This document shows positions 3,166 to 58,130 of a stretch of 64,000 bases of DNA, piece after piece. This DNA comes from an archaeon. Its GTDB lineage: Archaea > SpSt-1190 > DYHY01. The notes under the pieces were generated by a model, which was given only the letters and a program-made list of their open reading frames with translations, did no database searches and had not been told where the DNA came from. The position numbers and the translations under genes are program-made. Each line of letters opens with the position of its first letter. The first letter of the stretch is position 1. The DNA is taken from positions 16,738 to 80,737 of the forward strand of contig JAZDJS010000021.1 of NCBI GenBank assembly GCA_043803745.1. Reading direction: 5' to 3'.

Positions 3166-3365
3166 TTTTCTTTTGCGCCCGTCAACGGAGCTTTTCTTTT
3201 GCGAAAAGAAAAGATGGGTTGGGAGTGGACTGGACGGGAGTCCCCTACCGGACTTCGGCTAGCGCCTCAGGAACCCGTGACAGTGGGGTTTTCTTTTGCG
3301 CCCGTCAACGGAGCTTTTCTTTTGCGAAAAGAAAAGATGGGTTGGGAGTGGACTGGACGGGAGTC
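3166..3365. repeat. Tandem direct repeat with a 123-bp period. Copies are about 77 nt and about 74 nt are identical. Each copy ends with the last 17 nt of tRNA-Ala (tggactggacgggagtc) preceded by a conserved palindromic trailer.
   Basis: Copy 1 is at about 3166-3242 and copy 2 at 3287-3365. Copy 2 overlaps the 3-prime end of the tRNA-Ala gene. The 44-nt spacer at 3243-3286 contains gaacccgtgac, which is a T-arm fragment. Confidence 0.9.
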
Positions 3366-3420
3366 GAACCCGTGACCTCAGCGTTGCGAACGCCGCATTC
3401 TACCACTGAACTACCAGCCC
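3349..3420 (-). tRNA. tRNA-Ala (anticodon CGC)
   Basis: The reverse complement folds as GGGCTGG-TA-GTTC..GAAT-GCGGCG TTCGCAA CGCTGA-GGTC-ACGGG TTCGACT CCCGT-CCAGTCC-A. The G3:U70 pair is the alanine identity element. The anticodon loop is TTCGCAA. CCA is not encoded. Confidence 0.85.
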
Positions 3421-3606
3421 GTGCGTCTATCCAAGTTCAGTGGCGGTATATTAGCATTCCTGAGCCATCAGGCAAAGTCCGTGAGCGCACGGATACCACT
3501 GAACTACCCGCCCTTTTTTTACTGAACCCGAGCCATCGCAGGCGAGGTCCGCGCTTGATGCACGGATACCGGCCCTTGAACTTTTGGAAACTCTTCCGGG
3601 TTTTTA
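3421..3606 (-). other. Two tandem degenerate units of about 90 nt upstream of tRNA-Ala. They contain tRNA-like 5-prime fragments (GGGCGGGTAGTTCAGTGGTA on the minus strand), hairpins (TCCGTGCGCTCACGGA; CCTGATGGCTCAGG) and A/T runs. This is a possible structured ncRNA or pseudo-tRNA.
   Basis: The minus-strand read gives GGGCCGGTATCCGTGCATCAAGCGCGGACCTCGCCTGCGATGGCTCGGG.. and GGGCGGGTAGTTCAGTGGTATCCGTGCGCTCACGGACTTTGCCTGATGGCTCAGG.. The units are homologous to each other. The + strand copies end in T7 and T5 runs. Confidence 0.3.
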
Positions 3607-3668
3607 ATAGATTCTGTAGGTCTGCAAAGGTAAGATATTTAAATAATCACTAGGTAATGATGAATTAG

Positions 3669-4076
3669 ATGACTAAAAAGAGGGGCTACGCACTGCGCGT
3701 CGGGGAGTATCTTCACGAGCTTTGGCCCAACGCAATCCTCTGCCGCCCTGACAAGGAAATCCCTCAGAAAAACGGAAAGAGGCCTGACTGGCTTGTTCTC
3801 GACTCGGTTGATGAGCTTGACGGACGGACAACATATCGAGTTTTTCCCGTTGAAGTCAAACAGAGACACGCGCTGGATGGAGAAGAACAAATACGCAGGG
3901 CGACTACAAGGGCTGTTGTCGATTTTTACCGCAGAAGACCTGATGTAAGACCTGCGGTGACTGAAATTCTCCGGGGAAGTTGGGAACTTCTTCCAGGGTA
4001 TGTTGCTTCATCTGAATCGCCTCCGGAAGGCGCGCCAATTCAACACCTGCTCGTTCCTTTGAGCTATCATCGTTGA
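3669..4076 (+). CDS. hjc: PD-(D/E)xK nuclease, probably Holliday junction resolvase Hjc
   Basis: 135 aa. KKRGYALRVGEYLHEL ... PDWLVLD ... VFPVEVKQR matches the Hjc motifs (KRKG..E..; PDIIA; LIEVKS). A TATA-like ATATTTAAATAA lies about 26 bp upstream. Confidence 0.55.
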   Translation: MTKKRGYALRVGEYLHELWPNAILCRPDKEIPQKNGKRPDWLVLDSVDELDGRTTYRVFPVEVKQRHALDGEEQIRRATTRAVVDFYRRRPDVRPAVTEILRGSWELLPGYVASSESPPEGAPIQHLLVPLSYHR

Positions 4077-5275
4077 GCGCTTCTCAAATCCCGTTTAGGA
4101 AACAGGAAAATCCCCAGCGCGAACAGAGGAATGACTGCGGCGAATGCGAATGCTGCAGAAGGCCCGGAATATTTCCAGAGGAGCCCCGCAATAGCCGAAG
4201 CTGGAAGATAGACAAGCCCGGTTACGAAGCTGTAGAGACCGATTGCGCTTGCCCGGGTCTCCTTTGCGGATGTGTCGGAGATGTAGGCTTTGCTCTGCGC
4301 CTCGTCAAGCGTGTAGAAGATTCCGAAAAGGAGGAACAGGATGATTATCGTCTCCCGGGAATTCGCAAGAAGGAAGCCTATTGAGATTGCGGAGTACAGG
4401 ACATATTCTCCGGCAACAAGATATTTCCGGCCTATCTTGTCGCCCAGTTTCCCGAGGGGGACTGCAAACAGGAAGAAGGAAACGTTGAAGGTTGCATAGA
4501 GGAGAACGACCTCGCTTGCGGAGAAGCCGACAAGATATGCCTTGAGGAGGAGGAAGGAGAAGCTGAAATAGGAAAGGGAGAAGACTGCCGAGGAAAGAAG
4601 GTAGCGCTTCAAATCCCCGGAGAGGGTTCCGAGAATCTGGAAGGGATTCGCGCGGATTGCTCTTTTCCTCGGCTTCCGGTCCTTCACGAAAAGGACAAGG
4701 ACAAGGACGGAAAGAATTGCGGGAACGAGAGCGACTGCGAAGAGGAACCGGAACGCTGAAGGGGTTTCCCCGAGGGACTTGAGAATCAGATATGCAACGA
4801 AAGGTCCCAAAATTGCCCCGGCCTTGTCAAGCATTTTGTGGATTCCGAACGAAGCCCCGGTCTTCCCTTCCGAGGAAATCGTTGATATTAGCGCATCTCT
4901 CGGAGCGCCGCGGATCGATTTTCCTAGGCGCTCGACAACCCGGAAAAGGGCTGCCCCGAAAACCGTCGGGAGGAAAAGGATTATTGATTTCGCAGCAGTC
5001 GAGAATCCGTAGCCGAAAACCGCGAACGGCTTTCTTTTGCCAGTTTTGTCGGAAAGGTAGCCGGAAACAAAGTCAAGGGAGGAGGCCGCGAAATCAGAAA
5101 GGCCCTCGACAAGCCCGAGGAGCGCCTGGGATGCCCCAAGGATTACAGTGAAGAAAACGGAGAAAACGGAGAAAATCATTTCCGAGCTTATGTCAGTCAG
5201 GAAGCTGACGATTCCTAGAATAATTATTTCTAGGGGAACCCCGAAAATCTGCCTTGGCTTTCTTTTCTCGCCCAT
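4067..5275 (-). CDS. MFS (major facilitator superfamily) transporter
   Basis: 402 aa with about 12 predicted TM helices and MFS-like loops (GxLSDKTGKRKP). Confidence 0.75.
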   Translation of the reverse strand: MGEKRKPRQIFGVPLEIIILGIVSFLTDISSEMIFSVFSVFFTVILGASQALLGLVEGLSDFAASSLDFVSGYLSDKTGKRKPFAVFGYGFSTAAKSIILFLPTVFGAALFRVVERLGKSIRGAPRDALISTISSEGKTGASFGIHKMLDKAGAILGPFVAYLILKSLGETPSAFRFLFAVALVPAILSVLVLVLFVKDRKPRKRAIRANPFQILGTLSGDLKRYLLSSAVFSLSYFSFSFLLLKAYLVGFSASEVVLLYATFNVSFFLFAVPLGKLGDKIGRKYLVAGEYVLYSAISIGFLLANSRETIIILFLLFGIFYTLDEAQSKAYISDTSAKETRASAIGLYSFVTGLVYLPASAIAGLLWKYSGPSAAFAFAAVIPLFALGIFLFPKRDLRSAQR

Positions 5276-5333
5276 TTAGGTCGTGGTCCTTTTTCGTTTT
5301 CCCGTGAAAGGTCCTCTGCAGAGGAGGTTTCAG

Positions 5334-5420
5334 CGCCGAGAATGGGATTTGAACCCATATATCCCCGAAGGGAAACCAGCTCTCAAGGCTGGCGCGTTGA
5401 CCGGATTTCGCTATCTCGGC
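5334..5420 (-). tRNA. tRNA-Ser (anticodon TGA), class II with a long variable arm
   Basis: The reverse complement is GCCGAGA-TAGCGAAATCCGGTCAACGCG-CCAGC CTTGAGA GCTGG-TTTCCCTTCGGGGATATA-TGGGTTCAAATCCCA-TCTCGGC-G. The TATA TTTATAAA at 5443-5450 sits about 26 nt upstream of the 5-prime end. Confidence 0.85.
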
Positions 5421-5573
5421 AGGTTCTAAGGCTTGATGGTAGTTTATAAAATGAAGTTTTTCTTACGCCCGTCAACGGATTTTCTTTTTGCCAAAAAGAA
5501 AATGGGTTGGATGTTGACCGGATTTCGCTCTTATCTCGGCGTGCGTTAAGGCAAGGAGGGAGTTTATAAAATG
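5396..5573. repeat. Direct repeat with a 117-bp period. It duplicates the first roughly 28 nt of tRNA-Ser plus its TATA promoter (unit A 5396-5453, unit B 5513-5573, about 85% identical). The palindromic trailer element lies between the units.
   Basis: gttgaccggatttcgctatctcggcaggttctaaggcttgatggtagtttataaaatg versus gttgaccggatttcgctcttatctcggcgtgcgttaaggcaaggagggagtttataaaatg. Confidence 0.85.
5443..5450 (-). promoter_or_regulatory. Archaeal TATA box (TTTATAAA) for tRNA-Ser
   Basis: Palindromic TATA centred about 26 nt upstream of the tRNA 5-prime end. Confidence 0.6.
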
Positions 5574-5595
5574 GGCGCTGATTGGAAGAGAGACG

Positions 5596-5784
5596 ATGGA
5601 TTCTCCTTCTCACCAAGCGAAACCCGCAAGGGAAAAGCGCCTCCAGGTGGACTGCATGAACTGCGGGGAAGCGGTTGACATAACTGGCAAGGCTGCGGGG
5701 GAGAGAATATTCTGCCCTGAATGCAAAGCGGAATTCGTCGTTGCCCTGATAGACGGGCATCTTGATATCGAATTCCTGACCTGA
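5596..5784 (+). CDS. Small zinc-ribbon protein (CxxC...CxxC), LysW-like architecture
   Basis: 62 aa, ...CMNCGEAVDITGKAAGERIFCPECKAEFVVALIDGHLDIEFLT. The duplicated TATA (5563-5570) is about 29 nt upstream, consistent with a leaderless promoter. Confidence 0.45.
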   Translation: MDSPSHQAKPAREKRLQVDCMNCGEAVDITGKAAGERIFCPECKAEFVVALIDGHLDIEFLT

Positions 5785-5827
5785 TTCGGCCGGAAAAACT
5801 TTTAACCTAGGAACGTGACGTTCCGGG

Positions 5828-7924
5828 ATGGCAAAGAGGAAACTCATCTTGGTGGGCTTGGTTTTGGCATATTTGGTTATTGTCGGGGGATTTTCTCCGG
5901 GGACTGGGGATTCCGCGCTCTCTTCGGGAAGCGCTCTTGTCGCATGCACAATGGATGCGAAAATCTGCCCCGATGGCAGCGCGGTTGGAAGGACCGGACC
6001 GAACTGCGAGTTTGCGCCCTGCCCTGAAGATTCAACATCATCTGGGGGAGGCCAAACTGAGATTGCGAACCCCGCTTCGGTGAAATGCATCAGGGAGGGG
6101 GGGAAACTGGCAATCAAAGAAGCTGACGGGGGACAAATCGGCATCTGCCACTTTCCCGACGGAACCTCCTGCGAAGAATGGGCATATTACCGGGGCGAGT
6201 GCGGGACGAATTCCGGAGGGGAAATTTCGCTGCCGACAACCCTAATACAGCCAATTGACTCCGCATGCGCAAGAATCGCCCTCCTAAGGCAGGAGCTTGC
6301 GAAATATAGGGAACTTGTCTCCCTAACCGAAAACGAGCTTTCCTCAAGGGGATATTCCCTTGAAAAACTCAAGCTCATTATCAGCGAAAAGGAGAAACTT
6401 GTAAGGGAGAAAATCTCCGAGTGTCCTGAAAGCTCGGAAACCGGCGGAACAAGCACATCCTCTTCCGGAGGCTCCGGGCAGGGGGTCCTCCAAAGCGGCG
6501 ACGGCTGCCTTGAAATCCAAAACAGGATACAGAAATACAAGGAAATTCTCCTTCTGAATGACGAGCTCCTTTCCGAGAAAGGGCTTGCCAGGGAGAAAAT
6601 CAAGGCTCTGCTTGATGCGGAAGCTGGGAAATATTCCGCCTGCTTGGGTGCAAATCGGGCAACTGAAACCTTGCCTGCGGTCCCGGTGCTTACGCCCTGC
6701 GGCGAGGCGAAGGGGCTTTCCGAAAACGTTCTCTATTACAAGAAGCTCCTTTCATTGACTGATGAAGAGCTTGCGGAAAAGGGCCTTGAAAGGGCGCTGG
6801 TCCAGAAGAAATTCGAGCAAGCTGACGCTACGCACAACAATGCAGTCTCCAACTGCGTTGTCACAAAAGCGGAGCCGATTTCTTCCGAGGCAGTCCCGAT
6901 AGGTCCCTGCGAACAGGTCAGACTTGTCGAGCAGAAAATCCTCTACTACAAAAAGCTCCTTGGCCTTACGGATTCGGAGCTTGCGGAGAGGGTGAAGGAA
7001 TACACGCGCGAGAACCTGAAGGCGAACCTCGAGTCTCTTGAGAAAACTTATGCCGAGTTCGTCCGCAAATGCAGGGCGGCTTCCGGGGAAACCCGGGCGC
7101 AACCTTGTGTTCCCTCCCAGGAAAAGATGCGGGAGTATGAAGGTCTTTCCGAAAAGCTCAAGGCAGCGAACGCTAACGGAGACAAGGCGCTCGCAGAGGA
7201 GATAATGCAGGAAATCCGGGCTGTGAAGGCTGAGATTGCCGCGTCGAATTCCTGCGCCCAGGAAATTTCTGCAGCGGCAATTGCAAAGCCGACTGCAGTT
7301 GAAAATTCCCAGGAAATTTCCAGCTATTACAAGAACAAGCTGGCGACGGTGATGTCGTCCGCCTCGGGAGTTGACAGCCAAATCTCCTCCCTGAAGGAAC
7401 TCAGGACCGAGATAGACAAGATGATTGAAGCGCTCCTGAAGAGGAAGGAAAGCGTTGATGCCGAAGAGCTTTCAGGTCTCGCAACTGTCGAGATTTCGGA
7501 AGACGGGATGAAGGTCAACAACAAGGTTGTCGAATCCCTTGTAAGCAACGAGATTGTCACAAGGATAAACAACCGGGAGATGAAGGTTCTGAAGGGCGCT
7601 TCCGGGGTTTCCCTTGACGACGGCTCGGAAATAAAGCCGGATGTCGGAGAGCCGGTGATTGTCGAGGATGGGAAAGTGAATATTGGCGGAAATGAGCTGA
7701 AAATCCTTCCTGGCGAGCTTGGGACCTTGATTGGCTTCGCCCCCGACTCGGTTGAGTTGGGGTCTGAGGATGGGAAGCTCGTCTATGTTGCAAGGATGAA
7801 TGAAAAAAGGAAGCTTTTCTGGATAATCCCAGTTCAGGTCGAGAAAACGGAGAAAATAGACGCTGAGAACGGTGAGTCCCTCGGGGAAAGCATGCCTTGG
7901 TGGTCAGCCCTGGCTTCAAGATAG
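5828..7924 (+). CDS. Secreted or membrane-anchored repeat protein with an N-terminal DUF333 (putative hemolysin-like) domain
   Basis: 698 aa. N-terminal hydrophobic anchor, then SVKCIREGGKLAIKEADGGQIGICHFPDGTSCEEWAYYRGEC, which is the DUF333 signature. Four internal repeats of the type KY(K/R)ELxSLTDxELxEKGL separated by Cys-containing linkers. Coiled-coil-rich C-terminal half. Confidence 0.65.
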   Translation: MAKRKLILVGLVLAYLVIVGGFSPGTGDSALSSGSALVACTMDAKICPDGSAVGRTGPNCEFAPCPEDSTSSGGGQTEIANPASVKCIREGGKLAIKEADGGQIGICHFPDGTSCEEWAYYRGECGTNSGGEISLPTTLIQPIDSACARIALLRQELAKYRELVSLTENELSSRGYSLEKLKLIISEKEKLVREKISECPESSETGGTSTSSSGGSGQGVLQSGDGCLEIQNRIQKYKEILLLNDELLSEKGLAREKIKALLDAEAGKYSACLGANRATETLPAVPVLTPCGEAKGLSENVLYYKKLLSLTDEELAEKGLERALVQKKFEQADATHNNAVSNCVVTKAEPISSEAVPIGPCEQVRLVEQKILYYKKLLGLTDSELAERVKEYTRENLKANLESLEKTYAEFVRKCRAASGETRAQPCVPSQEKMREYEGLSEKLKAANANGDKALAEEIMQEIRAVKAEIAASNSCAQEISAAAIAKPTAVENSQEISSYYKNKLATVMSSASGVDSQISSLKELRTEIDKMIEALLKRKESVDAEELSGLATVEISEDGMKVNNKVVESLVSNEIVTRINNREMKVLKGASGVSLDDGSEIKPDVGEPVIVEDGKVNIGGNELKILPGELGTLIGFAPDSVELGSEDGKLVYVARMNEKRKLFWIIPVQVEKTEKIDAENGESLGESMPWWSALASR

Positions 7925-7933
7925 AAAGGAGTT

Positions 7934-11545: not shown

Positions 11546-11546
11546 C

Positions 11547-27867: not shown

Positions 27868-28671
27868 GTGCCGGACAGGCAAAACCCACGAATGGACGGG
27901 AAAACCGCCGAAAAGGCAATTGAAAAATCCGGGCAGAACCTCCTGATCTTCCTGATAATCCTGACCTTCCTATACGTGATACTCCAAAACTTCTCGCCCT
28001 TTTTCAGGATTGCCGTCCCCCTTGCAACGGCAATCGCGGTCTACCGCACAATGAAGGCGTCGGAGAGAAAATCTCCTGAGACGATAGAAACGAAGACCTG
28101 GAAGCTTGTCGCAGTCTGCCTCGGAATATGGCTCGCAGGGGAGCTTTCGGTGGTTGCTTTTTTCGCCAGGGAGGGCTTCGTTCCCTATCCATCCCTTGCC
28201 GAAATTTCCTATCTCATCGGGTATGTGCTCATGGGCGCGGGGGCTTTCAGCATAATAAGGAAGGTCGATGTCAAGCTTCCGATAACGCACATCCTGACGT
28301 TCACCCTAGTGGTCCTGCTTTTTTCCGGAGCGGTGACAAACTTCGTTATAGCGCGCGCCCTTATGAGCGAAGCCCCTTTTCTCGAAAAGGCGTTCAACAT
28401 CGGCCTCCCGATTGCCGACATGATGCTGATAATAGTCGTTTTCGCAATCTACTTCGTCTACTTCGGTTCCGGAAGGAAGGAACGCCTCCTTGAAGAAAGC
28501 TGGGCCGTTGTAATACTCGGAATGACCTTTTCGGCTTTCGCGGACATAATAATGACGTACAGCAAGATAAGGCTAATCGATTCGATTTACCTTGCGCTCC
28601 TCCCCGGAATCCTCTACATCTGGTCGCGGGGGGTTGTCGGGCTTGGAGCGAAGGCGCGGTCTTCCAACTGA
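27868..28671 (+). CDS. Integral membrane protein
   Basis: 267 aa, multi-TM. It is followed by the hairpin CCCCCCTAACGGGGGG plus a T-rich tract, a terminator-like structure at 28713-28740. Confidence 0.5.
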   Translation: MPDRQNPRMDGKTAEKAIEKSGQNLLIFLIILTFLYVILQNFSPFFRIAVPLATAIAVYRTMKASERKSPETIETKTWKLVAVCLGIWLAGELSVVAFFAREGFVPYPSLAEISYLIGYVLMGAGAFSIIRKVDVKLPITHILTFTLVVLLFSGAVTNFVIARALMSEAPFLEKAFNIGLPIADMMLIIVVFAIYFVYFGSGRKERLLEESWAVVILGMTFSAFADIIMTYSKIRLIDSIYLALLPGILYIWSRGVVGLGAKARSSN

Positions 28672-28712
28672 ACTACCTGCCCGTCAAAGATCCCCCCTAA
28701 CGGGGGGCTTTC

Positions 28713-35125: not shown

Positions 35126-35521
35126 ATGAGAAACGGAATGTTTTTTGTTGCCTCAGGGATACTGATTTTCGCGGGGATACTCCTCGCTGGGTGTGTTTCA
35201 TCAGCGCAGGGACTGGGGGGGAGCCCGGGGGGGAGCCCAGGGGGGAGCCTTAGCACGCCTCCGACAACCGCCCCCGCTCCGGAAGAGAAAACCTTCACTC
35301 TTTCTGAGATTGCCGGATATTCGACAAAGGAAAACTGCCTGATTGCGATAAACGGGAGCGTCTACAACATTACGGGGTATTTCGGCAAGCATCCTGCGGG
35401 GGACCGGACTTTGCTTTCCGGCTGCGGGAAGGATGCGACGGGAATCTTCAGCGAGAAGCATTCCCAGACGGCGTGGCAGCTTCTGCCCTCGTTCTATGCC
35501 GGAAAACTGGCCGGGCAATAA
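35126..35521 (+). CDS. Cytochrome b5-like heme/steroid-binding domain lipoprotein
   Basis: Lipobox-like LAGC. GGSPGGSPGGS linker. FTLSEIAGYSTKENCLIAINGSVYNITGYFGKHPAG is a b5-like motif. Confidence 0.5.
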   Translation: MRNGMFFVASGILIFAGILLAGCVSSAQGLGGSPGGSPGGSLSTPPTTAPAPEEKTFTLSEIAGYSTKENCLIAINGSVYNITGYFGKHPAGDRTLLSGCGKDATGIFSEKHSQTAWQLLPSFYAGKLAGQ

Positions 35522-35851: not shown

Positions 35852-36029
35852 CCGTGCTCCCGACGGTTGAGTCATCTTCAGAGGACGAAATCTCGGGACG
35901 CGAGCGCGTTAGACCCGCCAGACGAAAAAGTGCGAGTGCTCCCGACGGTTGAGTCATCTTCAGAGGACGAAATCTCGGGACGCGAGCGCGTTAGACCCGC
36001 CAGACGAAAAAGTGCGAGTGCTCCCGACG
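35852..36029. repeat. Perfect tandem repeat of 2 x 82 bp plus a 13-nt third start. Each unit begins with the last 13 nt of tRNA-Glu (gtgctcccgacgg) followed by 69 nt of trailer.
   Basis: Units at 35852-35933 and 35934-36015 are identical. The third unit is the tRNA 3-prime end itself. Confidence 0.9.
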
Positions 36030-36091
36030 GGATTTGAACCCGTGTCTCGGGCTCGAGAAGCCCAGATCCTTGGCCGAGCTAGACGACAGGA
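36017..36091 (-). tRNA. tRNA-Glu (anticodon CTC)
   Basis: The reverse complement is GCTCCTG-TCGTCTAGCTCGGCCAAGGATC-TGGGC TTCTCGA GCCCG-AGAC-ACGGG TTCAAAT CCCGT-CGGGAGC-A. Confidence 0.85.
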
Positions 36092-36187
36092 GCTTGAGAA
36101 TCGGGTCTTTCTCCCCGTTTTAAACGTTTTCCATCGAGTTTCGCCCAACCCAAAAATCTTTTTAACCTCTGTTCTTCCGGTTAGGCC

Positions 36188-36305
36188 GGGTCCATAGCTC
36201 AGCCCGGTAGAGCGGCAGTCTTATATGACTGTGTTCTATACACAAAGGATAGACTAGGTCTGAGTCAGCTGTTGGTCATGGGTTCGAATCCCATTGGGCC
36301 CACCA
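36188..36305 (+). tRNA. Intron-containing tRNA (118 nt including the encoded CCA). The tentative mature anticodon loop is CTTATAA, giving anticodon UAU (tRNA-Ile2 type). The isotype is uncertain.
   Basis: GGGTCCA-TA-GCTC AGCCCGGTA GAGC-G-GCAGT CTTATA | 41-nt intron (contains the hairpin TGTGTTCTATACACA) | A-GCTGT-TGGTC-ATGGG TTCGAAT CCCAT-TGGGCCC-A-CCA. The acceptor has a G4:U pair. A GCCCC-TTCA-GGGGC hairpin follows immediately. Confidence 0.65.
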
Positions 36306-36365
36306 GCCCCTTCAGGGGCTGAAGAAATTCCCACAGCCAGCATTCCCTTTGCGCTCTGAGGGGCT

Positions 36366-36410
36366 CATTGGGCCCACCAGAGCCCGTTTTCTTTTCCGAA
36401 AGAAAAAGCC
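36366..36410 (+). repeat. Copy of the tRNA 3-prime end (cattgggcccacca) 74 bp downstream of the intron-containing tRNA, followed by the palindromic trailer (gcccgttttcttttccgaaagaaaaag)
   Basis: 14-nt exact copy at 36366-36379. The trailer at 36381-36410 is similar to the elements at 3176-3222 and 5463-5510. Confidence 0.7.
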
Positions 36411-36426
36411 TTCGGGGAAAAAGAAA

Positions 36427-37326
36427 TCATTGGAGCGGGAAATACCTGCAAAAGGCGCAGAGCTTTCCCGAGGTCGGCTCCCTGCCGCAGGAGGGACAGA
36501 GCCGCGTCTCCTTCCCGAGGAGGGGGGCAAAAACCGGCTGGCCCTTGGAAAGATAGCTCAAGTAGAATTTCAGCCTGAATCCCGGTTCCCTCTTTTCAGC
36601 TGAAGAGAGGATTGCTTGCCACTTTTCCGTCTTCGGCTCCTTTGAAAAATTGCATTTCTTCTTCAAGTAGGGGAGTTTGAATAGTTTCGCCCAGTTTGAA
36701 AGCTCCTCCTTCGAGAAGAGGCAGAGCGGCTTTACCTTCTTCCCGAATCCAGGCAAGAGGCCGGAAACAATGGGAGTTCTCCGGGAAAGAATGTCTGGAT
36801 TCCAGGAATATACGCCGCCGAAAATCGCGGCTGTTTCGTCGTCAAGGTGATGGCCGGTTGCGAACGGGATTCCGGATTCCCGCGCCTCCCGGTTCAGGAG
36901 GGCGTTCCTTATTTCGCTGCAGGTTGCGCAGGGGTTTCGCCCCGTTCTTGAAAGTATTTCCCCGAGGGATTTATCCGGCTTTAGCAGCTTCAACTCAACG
37001 CCGCAGAAGCCGGAAATTCTCTCCGCAGCTTTTCTCGATTTGACTGAGAAAGCCCCGTTGCCCAAATCAACATGGATTGCGCGGACATTGAAACCGGCAA
37101 GCTTGAGCGAGTGGCAGAGGACGGAGCTGTCAAGGCCTCCGGAAAGCGCGACAAGGAAGGAGTTTCCCATCTGGAAATTCTTGACAGTCCAGTTTATTCT
37201 CCGAAGGAACCATTCCTTGTAATGCTCCCTGCAAAGGTCGTATTTGTGAGCCGGGAGGTGGAAGATTGCCTTTTTCTTCGCCGGGGCGTTCTTCTTGATG
37301 CAGATTGTGCAGTAAGGTGAAGACAC
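36427..37326 (-). CDS. PP-loop ATP pyrophosphatase of the TtcA/NcsA (Ctu1-like) tRNA thiolation family
   Basis: SGGLDSSV PP-loop, N-terminal CxxC and C-terminal CPSCG..CAFC zinc/Fe-S cysteines. Confidence 0.6.
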   Translation of the reverse strand: MSSPYCTICIKKNAPAKKKAIFHLPAHKYDLCREHYKEWFLRRINWTVKNFQMGNSFLVALSGGLDSSVLCHSLKLAGFNVRAIHVDLGNGAFSVKSRKAAERISGFCGVELKLLKPDKSLGEILSRTGRNPCATCSEIRNALLNREARESGIPFATGHHLDDETAAIFGGVYSWNPDILSRRTPIVSGLLPGFGKKVKPLCLFSKEELSNWAKLFKLPYLKKKCNFSKEPKTEKWQAILSSAEKREPGFRLKFYLSYLSKGQPVFAPLLGKETRLCPSCGREPTSGKLCAFCRYFPLQ

Positions 37327-39411: not shown

Positions 39412-42400
39412 TCTTTTTCCCCTGCAGGTTCTCTTGAGGACTCCGACCCTTCCCGGGAGAAACCGATTTCCGCGGCCCCGAGCCCGAGGTCGCCGAGGGA
39501 AACGCTGTCGCAGAAAACTTTCGAGCCACTCATTATCCTCACAAGCTCCATTTCCTGCGCCCCGACCTTCTCTTTCATAGCGGGGAGGAAGGGCGTTATC
39601 AGCTGCTCGGCCTTTTCGTCAAGACCGAGCTCAAGGACTATTTTCTGGGAAACCGTGAAACCGGAATCCTTCCGCATTGCCTGAATCTTGCGCGTGATTT
39701 CCCGGGAAGCTGCCTCGCCAAGCAGCGCGTCGTCAAGCTTCTTGTCAACGAAAACGACGAAGCCCGCTTCCTCGCCTCTCGCGTAATCGCCTGCGGGCTC
39801 CTCCGGGGAAACCTCGATTTTCTTGCAGTTCGCAAGGCGGGAGATAATTTCCCCCGCGAGGGAAATTGCCCTGGAAATGCCCTCTTCCTTGGAAACCACG
39901 ATTGCCTTCGCAACTGGATATCTGAGTTTTATTCCGGCAGCGTTCCGCGCAGCCATCAGAGCCTCAATTACTTTCTGGGCTGTGAAGACGGCCTCCTCAA
40001 GGGCTGAGTCGATTTTCCCTTCCTCGCATTCCGGCCAGGAACAGAGATGAATCGACTCTGAAACGGAGGAATCAAAGCTCTTCTCAAAGTTCTGGTAGAT
40101 TTCCTCGGAAATCATTGGGACGATTGGCGCCGAAAGCCGCAGTAGCTTTGAAAGAACCTCGTAAAGGGTCTGGTATGCGGCAAGCTTGTCCTCCCCCTGC
40201 GCGCCGGGCCAAGTCCTCTCGCGGATCAGCTTGATGTATGTCCGAGAAAGGTCGTTCACGAAAAACTTTTGGAGTGTCTCGGAAGTCTCCTCAATCTTGT
40301 AGTTGTCGAATGCTTCCGTAAGCCCTCGCACAAGGCTGTTGAGCCTTGAGAGAATCCATTTGTCCTCGATTTTCTTCTCGACCTGAGCCCCGCCGGGCCT
40401 GAATCCGTCAACGGACATGTAGCCGTGGGCGAAAGAATAGCTGTTGTAGAGAATCCGGAGATTGTTGAAAGCGTCCCTGACATATCTTTCGGAATATGAC
40501 ATGTCTTCCCCCGCCTTTGCGGAGGAGATGAAGAACATCCGGAGGCTGTCCGCCCCGTATTTCGGAAGGACTTCCTCGGGGGAAACGAAATTGCCAAGGG
40601 ATTTCGAGAATTTCCGCCCAATCTCGTCGTTAACGAATCCGTGCATGTAAACCGCCTTGTAGGGCGCTCGCCCGGTTGCAAGGACGCCGAGGCACATCAG
40701 GCTGTTGAACCAGCCGCGTATCTGGTCCTTGCCCTCGATTATGAAGTCGACAGGATAGGAGTCCGAAAGAACGTTCGGGTTTTCCGCCGGGAAGCGCTGG
40801 GCCGCCCAGGAGGCGGAACCGGCTTCTCCCCAGACATCGAAAATATCTGGCACGCGCGTCATGGCGTCCCGCTTGCATTTCTTGCACGCGAACTTTATCT
40901 CGTCAATCCAGGGCCTGTGCAAATCCTTCGGCTGGGTCGGGAGCTCTTTCGCGGAACCGACAACCTCTATTTCCCCGCAGTATTCGCATTTCCATATTGG
41001 GAGGGGAACGCCCCAGTATCTCTGGCGGGAGATGCACCAGTCCTGGAGGTTATCGAGCCAGGAATCGAACCAGGAAGAACCCGCCCAGTCCGGGACCCAC
41101 TTGACCTGCTTGTTCGCCTCGCGCATCTTCTCCTTGAGGCTTGCGGTTGAGAAGAACCACTGAGTCGTCGCAAGGAATATCAGGGGCGTCTTGCATCTCC
41201 AGCAAATCGGGTATTCGTGCGTGAATTTCTCGGTTGAGAAAAGCAGGCCTTTCTTCTCAAGATCCTCGATTATTTTCGGGTCGGCGTCCCTCTTGGCAAT
41301 GAATCCGTGATATTTGCCGGCCTCCTCGGTGAATGCTCCGGAAAGCTTGATCGGGCAGAACATGTCAAGGCCCTCCTTCTTCCCAACCTCAAAATCCTCG
41401 GGACCGGTTCCCGGAGCCAGGTGGACGCATCCGGTTCCGGCATCAAGATGGACATATTCCTTCGAGAGGACGACTGAATGGTTCTTATTGTCCTTCTCAG
41501 CAAACTTCCTCTGGGCGGGGATCTCGTCAATCAGGGGGTGGACGTACTTCAGACCGGCAAGCTCGGAGCCGGGAACCTCCTTCACGATTTTGTATCCGCG
41601 CCCGGCAAGTATCTTTTCCGCAAGCTCCTTTGCAAGTATCAGGGTCTCCCTCGGGGTCTCCCTCGGGGTCTCCCCGGGGAGCTCCCCGCCGCACTCGGCA
41701 TAGACATACTGGAAATCCGGGTTTACCATCACCCCCATGTTTGTCGGGAGCGTCCAAGGGGTTGTCGTCCATATCAGTATGAATGTTTTCTCGGCTCCGG
41801 CGACCGGGAACTTCACGAATATCGAGTTCTCAGTTATGTTCGCGTATTCCTGCTCGTGCTTGGCAAGGGCGGTTTCGCAGCGGGGGCATGCCGTAAGGAC
41901 CTTCGGCCCGTTGACAAGGTAGTTGCTGAGATATGCCTGCTTTATTCCCCACCAGACACCCTCGATGTAATAGTTCTCGATTGTCAGGTAGGGATTCTCC
42001 CAATCCATCCAGACCCCGAGGCGGATGAACTGGCCGTTCATTATCGCCAGGTTCTTCTTCGCGAAATTCCGGCAGTAGTTCACGAAATTCCCGACGCCGT
42101 ATTCCTCAATCTGCTTTTTGGATTTTATCCCGATTTCCTTCTCGACCTTGAGCTCGACCGGGAGCCCGTGCATGTCGTATCCCGGGGTGTCATTTACCGA
42201 AAAGCCCCGCATTGCCTTGTAGCGGAGGACCGAATCCTTCATTATCTTGTTCCAGGCGGTTCCGAGGTGTATTGCGCCGGTCGGATAGGGGGGTCCGTCA
42301 ATGAACGTGAACCTAGGCTTGCCGGACTGACCGGCCTTCCATTTTGAATAAATCGACTTCTCTTTCCAGAACGAAAGAATCCGCTCTTCTGTTGGAACTA

Positions 42401-52237: not shown

Positions 52238-52255
52238 TTCAGTCAGTCCCGTGCT

Positions 52256-52462
52256 TTACTTGAGGGCGCCGCGCCTTTTCGCGCACTTGAAACACAGGTA
52301 AAGCTTCTGCGTAGGACGGTAATATTTCCCGATAAAGTTCTTCCCGCCCGTAAGCCCCTTGTCAATCATTGGCTTGTGCTGCACAATCGCCCTTGACTGG
52401 GGGATTCTTCTATGGCATGAATCGCAGGTAATCACCTTTTCGCTTCCTCTTGCTCCGCTCAT
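52256..52462 (-). CDS. Small zinc-ribbon protein, possibly ribosomal protein eS26-like
   Basis: 68 aa. ITCDSCHRRIPQSRAI...KLYLCFKCAKRRG follows the C-x2-C ... YxC-x2-CA pattern of eS26. Confidence 0.3.
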   Translation of the reverse strand: MSGARGSEKVITCDSCHRRIPQSRAIVQHKPMIDKGLTGGKNFIGKYYRPTQKLYLCFKCAKRRGALK

Positions 52463-53346: not shown

Positions 53347-53414
53347 CCTGCTCCCAGACCCGTCTGAGTTCCCCAAGCGAAACGTTTATTACATAGAAAT
53401 GATTAACTTCCCGA

Positions 53415-54089: not shown

Positions 54090-54181
54090 TTCAAGTGTAT
54101 TTTCTCGCAGGGACGGGGAGGAAAAATGAAAGAAGGCCCCCTGTTCTTAGGGGGCTTGTTTTCTTGTTCAGAGACCGAGAT

Positions 54182-55420
54182 TTAGAGTCCTAAATCCTGC
54201 GGGGTCACCAGGCCGATTCCTTCCGGAACCGCTCCGACGTTTATCTTACGCATGCCAACGACATACTTGACCGGCTTGCCCTTGAGCATGTCGAGGAGGC
54301 GGGATGTTATCACGCCGTCAAGGACGATTGCGTCCATCCCCTCAATGCCCTCGATGCTTCTCTGGAGCTCGGATATTGGAACGCGCCCGAGAATCTGGAG
54401 GTTGCTATCGAGGAGATATGCCGCCCTTGTCCCGACAATCTCGTCAATGAATTTCTTGAACGTTTCCCTGTGGGGGGTGTCAAGCTCAACCGGCTTGGCC
54501 GGGGCTGCCGGCGGGGCAACCATCCTCTGCTCCGGCGCAGGAGGCTGAGAATCCGTCCGTGTCTGCTGAGGCTGGGAATATCCCTGCCCTTGCTGAATCC
54601 CCCTCTGGGGCGCTTGGTCGGACTGGTCGGACTCGGAAATGTCGTCCCCCGTCGATGTTGGTATGTCCTGTATCGTTTCCCCGACCTGCTCGACCGCAAC
54701 GCGCGCCCTGAGGCACTTGTGCAGTTCCTTCTTCTCAAGCTCCTCGACTTCCTTTCCGGAAGGCGCGCGGGCAATGTAGTCAATGTCCGCGACTTGCTTG
54801 ACTTCCTTGAAAATCAGGTCTCCGCCCCTGTCGCCGTCAACGAAAAGGGTTGTTGTCTTTTTCCTGGAAAGCTCCGCAAGGCTTCCCGGCACGTGCGTTC
54901 CCCCGATTGCAACGCAGTTCTTTATCCCGTTCCTGAGGAGGTTCACCACGTCGGCCCGCCCCTCGACAACGATTATCTCGTCGCTATCAAGGATTCCGGA
55001 GCCGGCAGGCATCCTGTCCGGACCCCACTCGATTATTTCACCGATTCTCACCGATTCGCGGACCGCATCAGTCAGTTCCTGCGTGTCCGGAAGGGTTTCC
55101 CCTACGAGGTTCTTCAGTATTTCCTTCGCCCGGTTTATTATCGACTTGCGCTTGGAAATCCTGACATCCTCGACTCCGAGGACTTTTATCGTTGCAGTGC
55201 AGGGCCCTACCCTGTCGATCGTCTCAAGGGATGCCGCAATTATCGCGGTTTCAGCCTTGTCCATGCTCGAAGGTATCTCGATTGTCCCGCTCGTCCTTCC
55301 GGACTTGGAGTCAACAAGGACCTCTATCCTCCCGATTCTTCCGGAACGCTGAAGCTCCCTGAGCTCCAAATCAGTTCCCAAAAGCCCCTCGGTCTGCCCG
55401 AAGATCGCCCCCGACAACAT
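54182..55420 (-). CDS. dnaG: Archaeal DnaG-type primase (TOPRIM domain)
   Basis: IIVVEGRADVVNLLRNGIKNCVAIGGTHVPGSLAELSRKKTTTLFVDGDRGGDLIFKEVKQVADIDYIARAPSGKEVEEL matches archaeal DnaG closely. Confidence 0.8.
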   Translation of the reverse strand: MLSGAIFGQTEGLLGTDLELRELQRSGRIGRIEVLVDSKSGRTSGTIEIPSSMDKAETAIIAASLETIDRVGPCTATIKVLGVEDVRISKRKSIINRAKEILKNLVGETLPDTQELTDAVRESVRIGEIIEWGPDRMPAGSGILDSDEIIVVEGRADVVNLLRNGIKNCVAIGGTHVPGSLAELSRKKTTTLFVDGDRGGDLIFKEVKQVADIDYIARAPSGKEVEELEKKELHKCLRARVAVEQVGETIQDIPTSTGDDISESDQSDQAPQRGIQQGQGYSQPQQTRTDSQPPAPEQRMVAPPAAPAKPVELDTPHRETFKKFIDEIVGTRAAYLLDSNLQILGRVPISELQRSIEGIEGMDAIVLDGVITSRLLDMLKGKPVKYVVGMRKINVGAVPEGIGLVTPQDLGL

Positions 55421-55611
55421 CAGGCTTTTCGATTACCCCGTTCGCCTGGATTTGTGCCTTGACTATGTATTTTGACGATACTGGTGCTATTTTTCCCATG
55501 TCTTTCTTTTTCTCCTTTCTTAATTTCATTCGTTCGTTTCCAGGTCAGTCAGAAGAACTTTCAGAAACCCAGCAAAAACACCGCTGTTCCTTGAACCGAC
55601 CGGGAGATTTT

Positions 55612-56013
55612 CTAGCCCTCATCAACCAGCTCGCATACATTCGCAAGCTGCTCGACAGCCGATTTGCCAAACAGTTTCGTCATTTTCCGGAAATGCATCA
55701 CCGGATGCATGCCGAAATCCTCAAGCGTTTGCGCGACAAGGTTCGCGAGTTTCGCGCCTTCCCTGTCAGGATCAGTTAGTATTATTGCAGACTTCGCCTT
55801 CGTCTCTTTCCTCAGGTCTTCTGCTACCTTTTTCTGCACGGGACCGGGTTTCTCCGATACCCGCAGCACCGGGTTGGTTATTCCGAGTGTTCTTAAAGCT
55901 TTCTCATCGTTTCTTCCCTCGACGATTATTGGCAATCCGGACTCCTTCAGCTCGGAAAGGAGTTTTTTCGCCTCTTTGAGGGAATTTTCCCGGGAGCTCA
56001 TCCAGGGCGACAT
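55612..56013 (-). CDS. Small stand-alone TOPRIM-domain protein (about 134 aa)
   Basis: LPIIVEGRNDEKALRTLGI...AIILTDPDREG. TATA CAAATATAAAC about 18 bp upstream of the internal ATG at 56013. Confidence 0.5.
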   Translation of the reverse strand: MSPWMSSRENSLKEAKKLLSELKESGLPIIVEGRNDEKALRTLGITNPVLRVSEKPGPVQKKVAEDLRKETKAKSAIILTDPDREGAKLANLVAQTLEDFGMHPVMHFRKMTKLFGKSAVEQLANVCELVDEG

Positions 56014-56138
56014 TTTCCCAAGTTTATATTTGGTTGTTTGCCCGAGCCCGCAAATTGCTTTCCTCTCAATTTTTCGGTCTTTTCTGAGGCCGCTTGAACA
56101 AACTATTTTAACCCCTTCCAAGTAATAGTCATGAGCCC

Positions 56139-56798
56139 ATGAAACCTGGACAAGACCGGCTTTCATCAAACCATCCCCGCTTGGCGCGGGAGATTCTCAA
56201 GCTGGCCGACTATGGAGAGCGGCGCGGCTTTGAAGTGATTTTCAATGGAAGCTGCGCCGCATATGCGCTCGGAATACTTGACAGGCCTCCCGGGGATGTC
56301 GATGCTCTGGTCGGACCGGGCGGGATAGACGAATATGCTTCTCCAATCTTTCGCAGGCCGAAGAAACGCAGGGAATGGCAGCTCCCGGATAGCAGTCAGC
56401 GAGGACTCTTGGCGGTTTTCAAGAATCCGTTGACCGGAGTCAAGATTGACTTGAACGAGATTTATCTTCGTAAGGAAGGGGTTGAGGTTCCCCAATATGA
56501 TGAAATGAAGGCGGCTTGGGTTGAAATCGGCGGCAGGCAGGTAAGAGTGATGCCGCCTGAGGAAATGGTTTATAGGAAAATCGTTGCTCTTGGAAATAAA
56601 AGACGGGCTGCGAACGGACTAGTTGAACGGGATTATGCCGACGCCCTCGAAATGTATGGGAAGGTATTGGCGGCAGGAAATTGGGATTCGGAATATTTCC
56701 TTGCAAGGGCGGCTCGGCTCGGGGACAACCTTCCAAAAGTTGCGGAAAGGTTTCCAAAGGCAACTCCTTTGATGAAGGAGCTAGGGCTTTTGGCATGA
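56139..56798 (+). CDS. Nucleotidyltransferase-fold protein (putative)
   Basis: FNGSCAAYALGILDRPPGDVDALV has GS followed by DxD. Confidence 0.35.
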   Translation: MKPGQDRLSSNHPRLAREILKLADYGERRGFEVIFNGSCAAYALGILDRPPGDVDALVGPGGIDEYASPIFRRPKKRREWQLPDSSQRGLLAVFKNPLTGVKIDLNEIYLRKEGVEVPQYDEMKAAWVEIGGRQVRVMPPEEMVYRKIVALGNKRRAANGLVERDYADALEMYGKVLAAGNWDSEYFLARAARLGDNLPKVAERFPKATPLMKELGLLA

Positions 56799-56834
56799 AA
56801 ACGGGTTTAAAGTGAGGTTTAAGCGGACACGCAA

Positions 56835-57773
56835 ATGGCTGGGAAAGCGAAAAGGAAGCAGAAGCACGCATATGTTGTCGTGAACCTAGAGGGGGAGAAT
56901 CTTGGCCCGGACTGGGAAAACTATTCCCGGGCGCTTGGCTTGGAAATCAGGGAAATTGACGGGAAAACCGAGGAAATGCCGAAAGTTGGCAAGGGTGAAG
57001 TTGCCTTCCTAATGGGCGGGAACCAGACTGCGACAACCGCGGAAATTGCGGCAAGCTGTCCATATCTGCAGGGGCAAGTCGACCTTGTGAATAGAATAAT
57101 TGACGGACAGAAGGGGCTTGCTGTCGGGGTCAATCTCGGCGCTCAGATAATCGCGCATGCTGTCGAGCCTGATTGCACGAAACCTTCCGGAATAATCCGG
57201 ATCGGAGAGAGCGCAGTTCATATAGACCCTGGCAACGAGCCAAGCCGGCAGGCTTTCTCGGGCGATGTTCCGTTCCAGGCAGTCAATTTCAACAGCTACG
57301 GAATCTACTTCAGCGAGCCGGAGCTTGATGTAACTATGCTTGCAACTTCCGGCAACTACAAGCAGTTTCCCTTCGAAGCGTTCTATGTCTTTGACGAAAC
57401 GAGCGTGCCGCGCGCTTTCGGGACTGCCTACCACGGCGAGCCCGCCGAATATTTTGCCAGGATTTTCAAGAGCCTGGAATACCGGGATTTCCTCGGGACT
57501 GGAGAGGATGTTTTCACTTTCCTAAGAAAAAAGGCGGCGGAGGGACTTGTCTATTCCGGGGGAAAACCGCTTGCGCCGAATTCCCCTGTCCTGACAAGGA
57601 GGGGTTTTGCCAAACTCTCGCAGGAGCATGAGCTTGAGCGAAGAATTGCCGGGATACATTCCCTCCACAACACGGTTGTCTTGTCCGGGACTGCCGAAAA
57701 GGCGCGCGCCCAAAGCGCGCTTGTTGAAACCCTTGCGGAAGCCGGCAGGGGTTATCTGGGGAAGCTGAAATAA
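56835..57773 (+). CDS. Hypothetical protein, GATase1-like fold with Cys replaced (GVNLGAQII)
   Basis: 312 aa. Confidence 0.3.
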   Translation: MAGKAKRKQKHAYVVVNLEGENLGPDWENYSRALGLEIREIDGKTEEMPKVGKGEVAFLMGGNQTATTAEIAASCPYLQGQVDLVNRIIDGQKGLAVGVNLGAQIIAHAVEPDCTKPSGIIRIGESAVHIDPGNEPSRQAFSGDVPFQAVNFNSYGIYFSEPELDVTMLATSGNYKQFPFEAFYVFDETSVPRAFGTAYHGEPAEYFARIFKSLEYRDFLGTGEDVFTFLRKKAAEGLVYSGGKPLAPNSPVLTRRGFAKLSQEHELERRIAGIHSLHNTVVLSGTAEKARAQSALVETLAEAGRGYLGKLK

Positions 57774-57787
57774 TTTTTTGGATGGAG

Positions 57788-57861
57788 TGGGCCTGCCGGG
57801 ATTCGAACCCAGGTCCGAGGCTTCGGAAGCCCCTATTCTGTCCAAGCTATACTACAGGCCC
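57788..57861 (-). tRNA. tRNA-Arg (anticodon CCG). The D-arm pairs poorly.
   Basis: The reverse complement is GGGCCTG-...-GGGGC TTCCGAA GCCTC-GGAC-CTGGG TTCGAAT CCCGG-CAGGCCC-A. The acceptor and T-arm are perfect. Confidence 0.7.
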
Positions 57862-57890
57862 TTTGCCGCAAGGGAGAATTCTCCCCGCTT

Positions 57891-57898
57891 TTTATAAA
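57891..57898. promoter_or_regulatory. Palindromic TATA box TTTATAAA, midway between the two divergent tRNA-Arg genes (about 30 bp from each 5-prime end). A GGAGAATTCTCC palindrome lies at 57873-57884.
   Basis: The spacing fits archaeal BRE/TATA-to-TSS distances in both directions. Confidence 0.55.
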
Positions 57899-57924
57899 CT
57901 CGGATTTTCCTACTTTTGCCCTCC

Positions 57925-58002
57925 GGACCCGTAGCTTAGCTTGGATAGAGCGAGTGGCTTCGAACCACTAGGTCGGGGGTCCAAATCCCTCCGGGTCCGC
58001 CA
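57925..58002 (+). tRNA. tRNA-Arg (anticodon TCG), CCA encoded
   Basis: GGACCCG-TA-GCTT AGCTTGGATA GAGC-G-AGTGG CTTCGAA CCACT-AGGTC-GGGGG TCCAAAT CCCTC-CGGGTCC-G-CCA. Confidence 0.85.
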
Positions 58003-58130
58003 AGCGTCCCCTCAGATCTCGCCCAGGTGAAAGCGCGCATAATAGGCTTGACCTCCGGGTCCGCCAAGCGTCCCCTCAGATCTCGCCCAGGTGAAAGCGC
58101 GCATAATAGGCTTGACCTCCGGGTCCGCCA
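57990..58130. repeat. Tandem repeat of 64 bp x 2.2. Each unit starts with the last 13 nt of tRNA-Arg(TCG) including CCA (tccgggtccgcca).
   Basis: Units at 57990-58053 and 58054-58117 are identical. A third start at 58118-58130 then diverges. Confidence 0.9.

Follow-up and report, generated by a model that had tools for sequence, protein, structure and literature searches.

Viruses and plasmids classically land at the ends of tRNA genes, and the pressure exerted there has been proposed as the cause of split and interrupted tRNA genes in archaea. A previous study described the termini of archaeal tRNA genes, 5' as well as 3', as typical attachment (att) sites, and reported that differences between attP and attB, intron-like inserts included, are inherited in the products of recombination (Sugahara et al. 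2012, PMC3293823). We analyzed a 64,000-nucleotide (nt) stretch from an archaeon of the GTDB lineage SpSt-1190 (DYHY01; contig JAZDJS010000021.1, positions 16,738 to 80,737), hereafter referred to as the window, in which most tRNA genes are accompanied by short direct copies of their own termini. In this lineage the signature of a landing site is seen at most tRNA genes and at both ends of genes, some of it very recent, with no element inside the repeats and no recombinase nearby.

Several described systems resemble this arrangement in part. In the tyrTV-rttR locus of Escherichia coli, which we checked, a tandem repeat with a 178-nt unit has about three copies at 95% identity, and its last copy overlaps tyrV by the terminal 19 nt of that gene. 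Cis-mobilizable elements (CIMEs) are att-flanked DNA without an integrase of their own; they can form tandem arrays with common att sites, are kilobases in length, and are recognizably derived from integrative and conjugative elements (ICEs). Casposons target the 3' ends of tRNA genes and generate target-site duplications of 14-15 bp. We report herein that terminal copies are found at 12 of the 15 tRNA genes present in four data sets, namely the window, a related metagenome-assembled genome (MAG; JBBIPP01), and two metagenome contigs (L012 and L019), and we discuss which process could have left them.

Copies of tRNA gene ends in the window

Six tRNA genes were called in the window by ARAGORN and Rfam, the intron-containing gene by Rfam only, and Tandem Repeats Finder (TRF) together with a repeat finder placed copies of the gene's own terminus at five of them. 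A sequence-only reading of the window had pointed to the same five genes, and the phenomenon proved wider than was claimed: tRNA-Ala also has copies on its 5' side, a conserved trailer module accompanies the gene ends, and the spacers between gene and copy are derived neither from the tRNA nor from neighboring DNA.

Two genes are followed by perfect arrays. The last 13 nt of tRNA-Glu(CUC) (36018-36093, minus strand; intact according to ARAGORN and Rfam), CCGTCGGGAGCAC, occur three times, within the gene (36018-36030) and again at 35936-35948 and 35854-35866, with a 69-nt spacer present twice between them. TRF reports this as an 82-nt unit in 2.2 copies that are 100% identical (35854-36030, minus strand); the sequence-only reading had given 2 x 82 bp and the same 13-nt end. 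Similarly, tRNA-Arg(UCG) (57925-58002, plus strand; called intact by both programs, with an encoded CCA) runs into a 64-nt array of 2.2 copies, 100% identical (57988-58130, plus strand; TRF), which consists of three copies of the 15-nt end CCTCCGGGTCCGCCA and two of a 49-nt spacer; the array had been correctly described, and its copied end is 15 nt rather than the 13 nt given. A single displaced copy is found next to tRNA-Ile(UAU) (36188-36305, plus strand), which contains a 40-nt intron at position 37/38 and an encoded CCA. This gene scored 57 bits with Rfam and was missed by ARAGORN; its anticodon and intron were assigned by hand. Archaeal genes for isoleucine tRNAs with the anticodon UAU are, to our knowledge, uncommon. 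Its terminal 15 nt, CATTGGGCCCACCAG, lie at 36292-36306 and 36366-36380, 74 nt apart, on either side of a 59-nt spacer (36292-36380 in all, plus strand; repeat finder) whose ends form inverted repeats of about 9 nt. Here the distance had been given correctly and the length, as 14 nt, had not.

tRNA-Ala(CGC) (3348-3420, minus strand; ARAGORN and Rfam, 67 bits; intact, with a G3:U70 pair) carries copies on both sides. Downstream, the last 17 nt of the gene and a 60-nt trailer module together constitute a 77-nt exact repeat with a spacing of 123 nt (proximal copy, 3289-3365; distal copy, 3166-3242, 100% identical to it; both minus strand), in agreement with the 123-bp period and 17-nt end reported earlier. 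The 46-nt spacer between the two (3243-3288, minus strand) contains an 11-nt exact copy of the 5' side of the T-arm (GTCACGGGTTC, 3271-3281), followed by 28 nt of unrelated sequence at position 56/57. Upstream, the repeat finder detected two units (3421-3582, minus strand) whose pairwise score was reached by none of 300 shuffles. Each unit has a tRNA-Ala-like 5' fragment that extends up to the GGTA of the D-loop and then continues as TCCGTGC...GATGGCTC.GG; the clear 5' copy is GGGCGGGTAGTTCAGTGGTA at 3494-3513, and the more degenerate unit is at 3514-3582. We also observed a 25-nt inverted repeat between the downstream and upstream spacers (3245-3274 versus 3457-3495), of which 22 positions, including three G-U, could pair as RNA. 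With these inverted stretches, the two spacers bracket the intact gene and its module.

At tRNA-Ser(UGA) (5333-5420, minus strand; ARAGORN and Rfam; intact), it is the 5' end that is duplicated. The promoter (TTTATAAA) and the first ~28 nt of the gene recur at 5513-5573 (minus strand; repeat finder, 76% identity overall, with 17 nt at 100%). The copy includes the TATA region and the first 9 and following 17 nt of the gene, separated by a 3-nt indel, and lies 117-120 nt upstream, which bears out the 117-bp period noted before for the first 28 nt plus TATA box. The sole gene in the window with no terminal copy, even when two mismatches were allowed, is tRNA-Arg(CCG) (57787-57861, minus strand; ARAGORN), again as claimed; a gap of 13 nt separates its 3' end from the neighboring gene's stop codon.

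As a gauge of chance, 2000 random 75-nt segments of the window were examined, of which about 2.9% are repeated exactly, in direct orientation and over 13 nt or more, within a distance of 400 nt. The five repeated tRNA blocks all measure at least 13 nt (13-77 nt), and each of them lies at a gene terminus.

Block anatomy, trailer module, and recurrence in relatives

Relatives within this thinly sampled lineage were found by scanning for the pattern of the trailer module. Genome representatives yielded MAG JBBIPP01 (loci L002 and L005), and metagenome contigs yielded L012 (Ga0209835) and L019 (Ga0116204); in every relative matched by these scans, the module lies 3' of a tRNA gene. The suggestion that terminal duplication is a property of the lineage was thereby upheld. 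In L002, tRNA-Val has a 25-nt copy at +128 and a third copy with two mismatches at +359, tRNA-Asn has an 11-nt copy at +69, and tRNA-Arg(UCU) is followed by a perfect 83-nt array of 2.4 copies, the unit of which contains a remodelled T-arm and 10 nt of the acceptor strand. tRNA-Gly of L005 has a 19-nt copy at +153. tRNA-Leu of L012 has a 13-nt copy at +76, followed by the module, and in addition two diverged upstream copies of its promoter and the 5' two-thirds of the gene. In L019, a 34-nt block from the 5' end of tRNA-Pro recurs at -132 and 12 nt of its T-arm recur downstream, and a second intron-containing tRNA (4794-4967, minus strand) has a 14-nt copy at +86. The latter gene, detected by Rfam only, has an intron of ~100 nt, and its 3' flank contains a T-rich stretch, an 11-nt inverted copy of the gene end and, farther on, the direct copy; given the inverted copy, the gene end could form a long hairpin with its trailer. 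Besides tRNA-Arg(CCG) of the window, tRNA-Asp and tRNA-Lys of L019 have no terminal copy.

The JBBIPP01 locus was also recovered in an independent Logan assembly (SRR11582162, contig L033), which shows one mismatch in 11,382 nt and reproduces the tRNA-Val structure, making an assembly artefact very unlikely and leaving the copy numbers of arrays uncertain. Contig L033 stops 10 nt into the 83-nt array 3' of tRNA-Arg(UCU), at coordinate 11382 of L032. Arrays of this kind break short-read assemblies, and the copy numbers seen in MAGs are probably lower bounds. As to gene neighborhoods, the gene adjoining the tRNA-Arg pair had no homologue but itself, and the closest relatives of the PP-loop gene adjoining tRNA-Ile and tRNA-Glu are only ~50% identical and lie on contigs without tRNA genes.

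The copied blocks have a common anatomy. The perfect blocks are 10, 11, 12, 13, 13, 14, 15, 15, 15, 17, 19, 25, 34, and 77 nt long (the last at tRNA-Ala), 7 of the 14 being 12-15 nt, and their edges are sharp: over the 15 nt to each side of a block, only 1-7 positions match, which is background. Blocks from the 3' end reach from about position 62-65, or from within the T-loop (54-57), to position 71 to 76+4, i.e., to the mature 3' end, whereas blocks from the 5' end (at tRNA-Ala, -Ser, -Leu, and -Pro) run from the gene start, or a few nucleotides upstream of it, into the D-loop or variable region. The distance from gene to copy, which is the length of the unit, is 64-153 nt, and 46-100 nt of DNA lie between. 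The proximal genes all score as intact tRNAs. The displaced copies often carry changes in their loops just outside the perfect block, such as the 28 nt at position 56/57 of tRNA-Ala, 20 nt at tRNA-Pro, and D-loop insertions at tRNA-Leu; in some of them the T-loop is remodelled, with CTCAA-CC replacing TTCAAATCC. Repeated events at one gene are evident at tRNA-Val, with its third copy, and at tRNA-Leu, with its two 5' copies, and the decay of the former and divergence of the latter indicate that displaced copies are not maintained.

The spacers are for the most part unique. Apart from the 11-nt piece at tRNA-Ala, none shows significant similarity to the body of its own tRNA, for which reason their reading as decayed copies of whole tRNAs was rejected, and no second copy of any spacer was found within the window and the related sequences compared. 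The possibility that they form one repeat family was mostly rejected, as BLAST finds only the trailer module to be common to different loci; thus, no single spreading family is involved. A weak motif next to the copy is common to the spacers of tRNA-Glu and tRNA-Arg(UCU), to those of tRNA-Arg(UCU) and the L019 intron-containing tRNA, and to the tRNA-Ala spacers (scores reached by 0 of 300 shuffles), and a profile built from seven members of it retrieved no new ones. Within three spacers (the L019 intron-containing tRNA, tRNA-Arg(UCU), and tRNA-Glu), a complement of the copied end is present.

The trailer module consists, in order, of (T)CAACCCAT, a T-run/A-run hairpin, TCCGTTGACGGGCG, and an A-rich tail. 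It is 85-98% identical between tRNA loci and genomes and always lies 3' of a tRNA end or tRNA fragment; no Rfam family matches it. In the window it is found at 3166-3224 and 3289-3347 (tRNA-Ala), at 5455-5512 (tRNA-Ser), and in variant form at 36381-36430 (tRNA-Ile) and 58131-58176 (tRNA-Arg(UCG)); in the relatives it is found at L002 1240-1293, L005 5520-5570, L012 9829-9885, and L019 1893-1947. The tRNA-Ser module (minus strand) is situated between the truncated 5' copy and the real promoter of the gene, and is 96% identical over 52 nt to the module 3' of tRNA-Lys in L019. The tRNA-Arg(UCG) variant (plus strand), located 3' of the last copy, reads GAACCCAT, the hairpin CCTCCGCGGAGG, CCGTTCGCGG, and an A-rich tail. 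Its first hairpin has a wholly different sequence that still folds as a hairpin, and the loop of its second hairpin is changed from UUGA to UUCG; since the hairpins are kept despite the change in sequence, the structure of the module is conserved. We infer that in this lineage the module is the trailer native to tRNA genes and carries their terminator.

Other features of the window were noted along the way. The tRNA genes form two head-to-head pairs, tRNA-Glu (minus strand) with tRNA-Ile (plus strand), 94 nt apart, and tRNA-Arg(CCG) (minus strand) with tRNA-Arg(UCG) (plus strand), 63 nt apart; with gaps of this size, each pair has a common short divergent promoter region. An isolated 35-nt tRNA-Ala-like 5' half, GGGCAGGTAGTTCAGTTGGAAGACCGCGCCTTCGC, lies at 28648-28682 (minus strand), 25 kb from tRNA-Ala and at the end of an open reading frame (ORF; 27892-28671). 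It spans the acceptor strand, the D-arm, and the start of the anticodon arm, gave no Rfam tRNA call even at E<=1, and is probably a scattered tRNA fragment. Adjoining tRNA-Ala is a small ORF (3669-4076, plus strand) with a PD...E-V-K motif, the sole homologue of which among 5.8 billion proteins searched is L002 522-980 (plus strand; 35% identity), which adjoins tRNA-Val. Its AlphaFold2 model is poor (pLDDT, the predicted local distance difference test score, 53), and the top fold matches, which are non-significant, are the archaeal Hjc Holliday-junction resolvases. With only two members, a poor model, and non-significant matches, it was rejected as an actor in the duplications and is probably a housekeeping nuclease. 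TRF found no further long-period tandem repeats in the window. There are three G+C-rich 12-nt tandem repeats of 2.8-3.2 copies, at 35215-35249, 41642-41679, and 59668-59701 (units GGGGGGGAGCCC, GGGTCTCCCTCG, and GGGGGACCCGAG), within a cytochrome b5-like ORF and the genes for isoleucyl-tRNA synthetase and GrpE, respectively, where they presumably encode short tetrapeptide repeats.

Proposed recombination at gene ends and competing explanations

The reading that we favor, with a probability of roughly 0.45, is that att-type recombination at tRNA gene ends left the copies as footprints and that they are not working parts of the tRNAs. Incoming DNA would bring a replacement tRNA terminus together with a short unrelated stretch, and would recombine with the resident gene, on the 3' side in the T-loop or T-stem and on the 5' side within the stretch from the D-loop to the variable region. 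The intact gene would be rebuilt from the incoming end, and the resident end would be shifted by 64-153 nt to become a dead fragment that retains its native terminator module (3' side) or promoter (5' side). Short identical ends could later misalign in unequal exchange, or take a second insertion, to give perfect A-B-A-B-A arrays, and older copies would decay. A tyrosine-integrase type of site-specific recombinase, with its gene located elsewhere, would be the most likely catalyst, and the inserts may be non-autonomous mini-cassettes or stripped remnants of integrated elements.

Three observations argue for such a replacement of gene ends: the sharp blocks terminate where the functional gene ends, the distal copy has the native trailer, and the intervening DNA is foreign to the locus. 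That the 3' blocks reach the mature end is readily accounted for, because an incoming copy must rebuild a working gene. The position of the trailer module is likewise suggestive. Where the spacer has no module (tRNA-Arg(UCG), -Glu, -Ile, and -Leu of L012), the distal copy is followed by one, which at tRNA-Glu is only a weak version, GGGAACCATTTTCCCG; where the proximal copy is followed by the consensus module (tRNA-Ala, -Val, and -Gly), the distal module is identical (Ala), degenerate (Val), or absent (Gly). A trailer 3' of the distal copy is expected if an incoming replacement displaced the original end, and the motif common to a few spacers is what related recombination arms would give. The loop changes in displaced copies are in keeping with the inheritance of attP/attB differences (PMC3293823), and the involvement of both gene ends and the repeated events at tRNA-Val and tRNA-Leu also favor recombination. 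The sequence-only reading had likened the duplications to att sites. In form the likeness is good, given the sharp perfect blocks that run to the mature end and the trailer at the distal copy (weak at tRNA-Glu). Imprecise excision, which that reading had also suggested, is not supported as the specific mechanism, and the interpretation as a whole is partly supported.

Several points weigh against recombination of this type. Units of 64-153 nt with inserts of 46-100 nt are far below the size of any described integrative element, and recombination of a double-stranded circle as small as 64-83 bp is implausible. Most spacers are unique and mutually unrelated. Twelve affected genes out of fifteen is far above the usual frequency of integration scars in archaeal genomes, and hints at selection or at a lineage-specific process. 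In addition, the 5' array of tRNA-Leu and the tRNA-Ala unit could be plain tandem duplications. Neither an empty site nor an attP or donor sequence turned up, and exact-pattern scans of viral contigs for the module, one spacer, and two tRNA ends returned nothing, or only unrelated tRNA genes of jumbo phages. The lineage DNA searched for a recombinase comprised the window and about 40 kb from relatives, ~100 kb in total. None of the 66 ORFs of the window contains an integrase, transposase, reverse transcriptase, or Cas domain, so the earlier statement that the window lacks an integrase stands, and no phage integrase (Phage_integrase) or resolvase, Cas1, PolB, or reverse transcriptase was found among the ORFs of L002, L005, L012, L019, and L032. 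The sole mobile-element gene in this DNA, and the only recombinase, encodes an IS4-type DDE transposase (L012 5793-6962, plus strand), 2.7 kb from tRNA-Leu. The favored reading does not account for the small inserts, the near-universal occurrence, or the lack of a recombinase nearby, and for this reason we hold it no more firmly than stated.

The main alternative, though rather unlikely, is local duplication with no mobile element, through slippage, flap misprocessing, or unequal sister-chromosome exchange at structured and highly transcribed tRNA genes. A gene end and its flank would be copied, as at tyrT/tyrV of E. coli, and the origin of the copy would then be blurred by mutation and small insertions. 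The three perfect arrays (64 x 2.2, 82 x 2.2, and 83 x 2.4) are what such a process would produce, a contiguous gene end and flank make up the 5' array of tRNA-Leu and the units at tRNA-Ala and tRNA-Val, and the tyrTV-rttR repeats, with their 178-nt unit in about three copies of 95% identity, provide a precedent. Archaeal Okazaki fragments also have a size range that includes 64-153 nt, the range of the units. However, in the A-B-A structures at tRNA-Ile, -Arg(UCG), -Glu, -Asn, the 3' side of -Leu, and the L019 intron-containing tRNA, the spacer is unrelated both to the flank that follows the copy and to the tRNA, and a simple tandem duplication cannot therefore yield the first A-B-A. Decaying tandem duplications would, moreover, give graded similarity, whereas the blocks are sharp-edged and those at the 3' side end at the mature tRNA end; at tRNA-Val the block is identical at 25 of 25 positions and the adjoining homologous trailer is heavily diverged. 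Nor does the window show other long-period tandem repeats, and FEN1 is present.

It is also unlikely, at least in our estimation, that the units represent a new class of gene-less cassettes of 64-153 bp, or that they arose by an integrase-independent mechanism specific to the lineage. Such a cassette would consist of a replacement tRNA end and a short tail, with a terminator module in some cases, and would insert repeatedly at the ends of almost every tRNA gene and rebuild them. If so, the tRNA termini of this lineage would be continually overwritten, which goes beyond mere scarring.

The sequence-only reading had further proposed that the copies are functional, and we consider this quite improbable. 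A trailer made of spacer and tRNA-end copy would be co-transcribed with the gene to serve as a small RNA or as a processing or termination signal, and the copy would be kept by selection or gene conversion. The frequency of the copies (12 of 15 genes) in compact genomes, the perfect core block in every copy within 153 nt of its gene, the complements of copied ends in three spacers, and the conservation of the module (85-98%, with the tRNA-Arg(UCG) hairpin kept in a different sequence and the loop changed from UUGA to UUCG) would all suit a function, and the analogous repeats of E. coli overlap a small RNA, RttR. Nonetheless, units of spacer and copy fold no better than shuffled sequence (z-scores of -2.0 to +1.1), so that their reading as structured RNAs is unsupported; they match no Rfam family even at E<=1, and a search by eye found no C/D-box motifs in them. 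The spacers, mostly unrelated to each other, vary in length and sequence and in the orientation of their common motifs, and 5' copies with a promoter of their own would yield truncated tRNAs. The decayed third copy at tRNA-Val and the 5' copies at tRNA-Leu also speak against upkeep, as do the three tRNA genes that have no copy.

Target-site duplication by a staggered-cut transposase acting at tRNA ends, for which a casposon-type Cas1 is a candidate and of which the spacers would be miniature derivatives, is doubtful in the extreme. Half of the blocks are 12-15 nt long, the 3' blocks lie at the very end of genes, the repeat is common to adjacent tandem units, and the tRNA-Ile spacer has terminal inverted repeats of about 9 nt; yet block lengths of 10-34 nt, and 77 nt at tRNA-Ala, fit no fixed stagger, the other spacers, as read by eye, have no terminal inverted repeats, 5' ends are affected as well, and no Cas1, PolB, or matching transposase is encoded in the window or the related loci. 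The fragments were also considered as split, permuted, or multi-intron tRNA halves. This was rejected, because each duplicates part of an adjacent complete gene and the joined pieces would have no anticodon arm (tRNA-Ala) or no 3' part (tRNA-Leu and -Ser). Finally, artefacts of metagenome assembly can practically be dismissed: every contig used, from MAGs or metagenomes, was built from short reads, which makes copy numbers in perfect arrays untrustworthy, but the same architecture recurs in four independent data sets at different tRNA genes, the tRNA-Val locus is found again in the independent Logan assembly, which breaks off exactly at the array, and the k-mers of the assemblies (contig names are of the metaSPAdes style) are longer than the repeated cores (10-25 nt), so that spacer-to-copy junctions must occur in the reads.

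The explanations differ in what they would imply. If the inserts are mini-cassettes mobilized in trans, we know of no smaller site-specific mobile units, and they would let the rebuilding and fragmentation of tRNA genes be seen directly. If a quirk of replication or repair is responsible, tRNA genes would be duplication hot spots, and if the copies are functional, they would represent a new kind of tRNA trailer. For practical purposes, genomes of this kind will have misleading tRNA annotations and broken assemblies, owing to the displaced fragments and perfect arrays.

Relation to known systems

We found no description of the combination seen here in the literature searched. Casposons likewise leave a short duplication at the 3' end of a tRNA gene that is common to tandem insertions, and differ in that the duplications here have no fixed length, are not accompanied by Cas1 or PolB, include 5' ends, and enclose a spacer with inverted repeats in one case only. 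CIMEs and the products of site-specific accretion resemble the present units in being att-flanked, integrase-less DNA arranged in tandem with common att sites; they are kilobases long and ICE-derived, whereas no parent element is known here. The tyrT/tyrV-rttR (tpr) repeats of E. coli have the 3' end of a tRNA and the downstream sequence repeated head to tail right after the gene, and head-to-tail units of this type, starting with the tRNA 3' end, are found at tRNA-Glu, tRNA-Arg(UCG), and tRNA-Arg(UCU) of L002. On the other hand, the E. coli repeats are confined to one bacterial locus and are not genome-wide, their units are 178 nt long and 95% rather than 100% identical, and they overlap an annotated small RNA and a small ORF.

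A close likeness is also seen to the attL/attR repeats left by archaeal integrative elements (SSV1-type and pNOB8-type integrases), as modelled by Sugahara et al. (2012, PMC3293823): an exact repeat of the 5' or 3' terminus of a tRNA flanks an insert, the gene stays functional, the displaced fragment may bear loop insertions, and tRNA fragments are scattered in the genome. Known cases enclose kilobases of DNA and an integrase gene, whole or split, whereas here 46-100 nt of gene-less DNA are enclosed, most tRNA genes are affected, and perfect tandem arrays occur. Partial tRNA genes beside intact ones, as by-products of recombination, were also described in Thermococcaceae (van der Gulik et al. 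2023, PMC9897764), where they are sporadic and tied to identifiable elements; in the present lineage they are near-universal, with small gene-less inserts. Thus, direct repeats of tRNA ends that arise from integration are already known, as are repeats of the tyrT type. What appears to be new is their combination, that is, gene-less units of 64-153 nt at both ends of tRNA genes, with perfect arrays and a trailer module, near-universal in one lineage.

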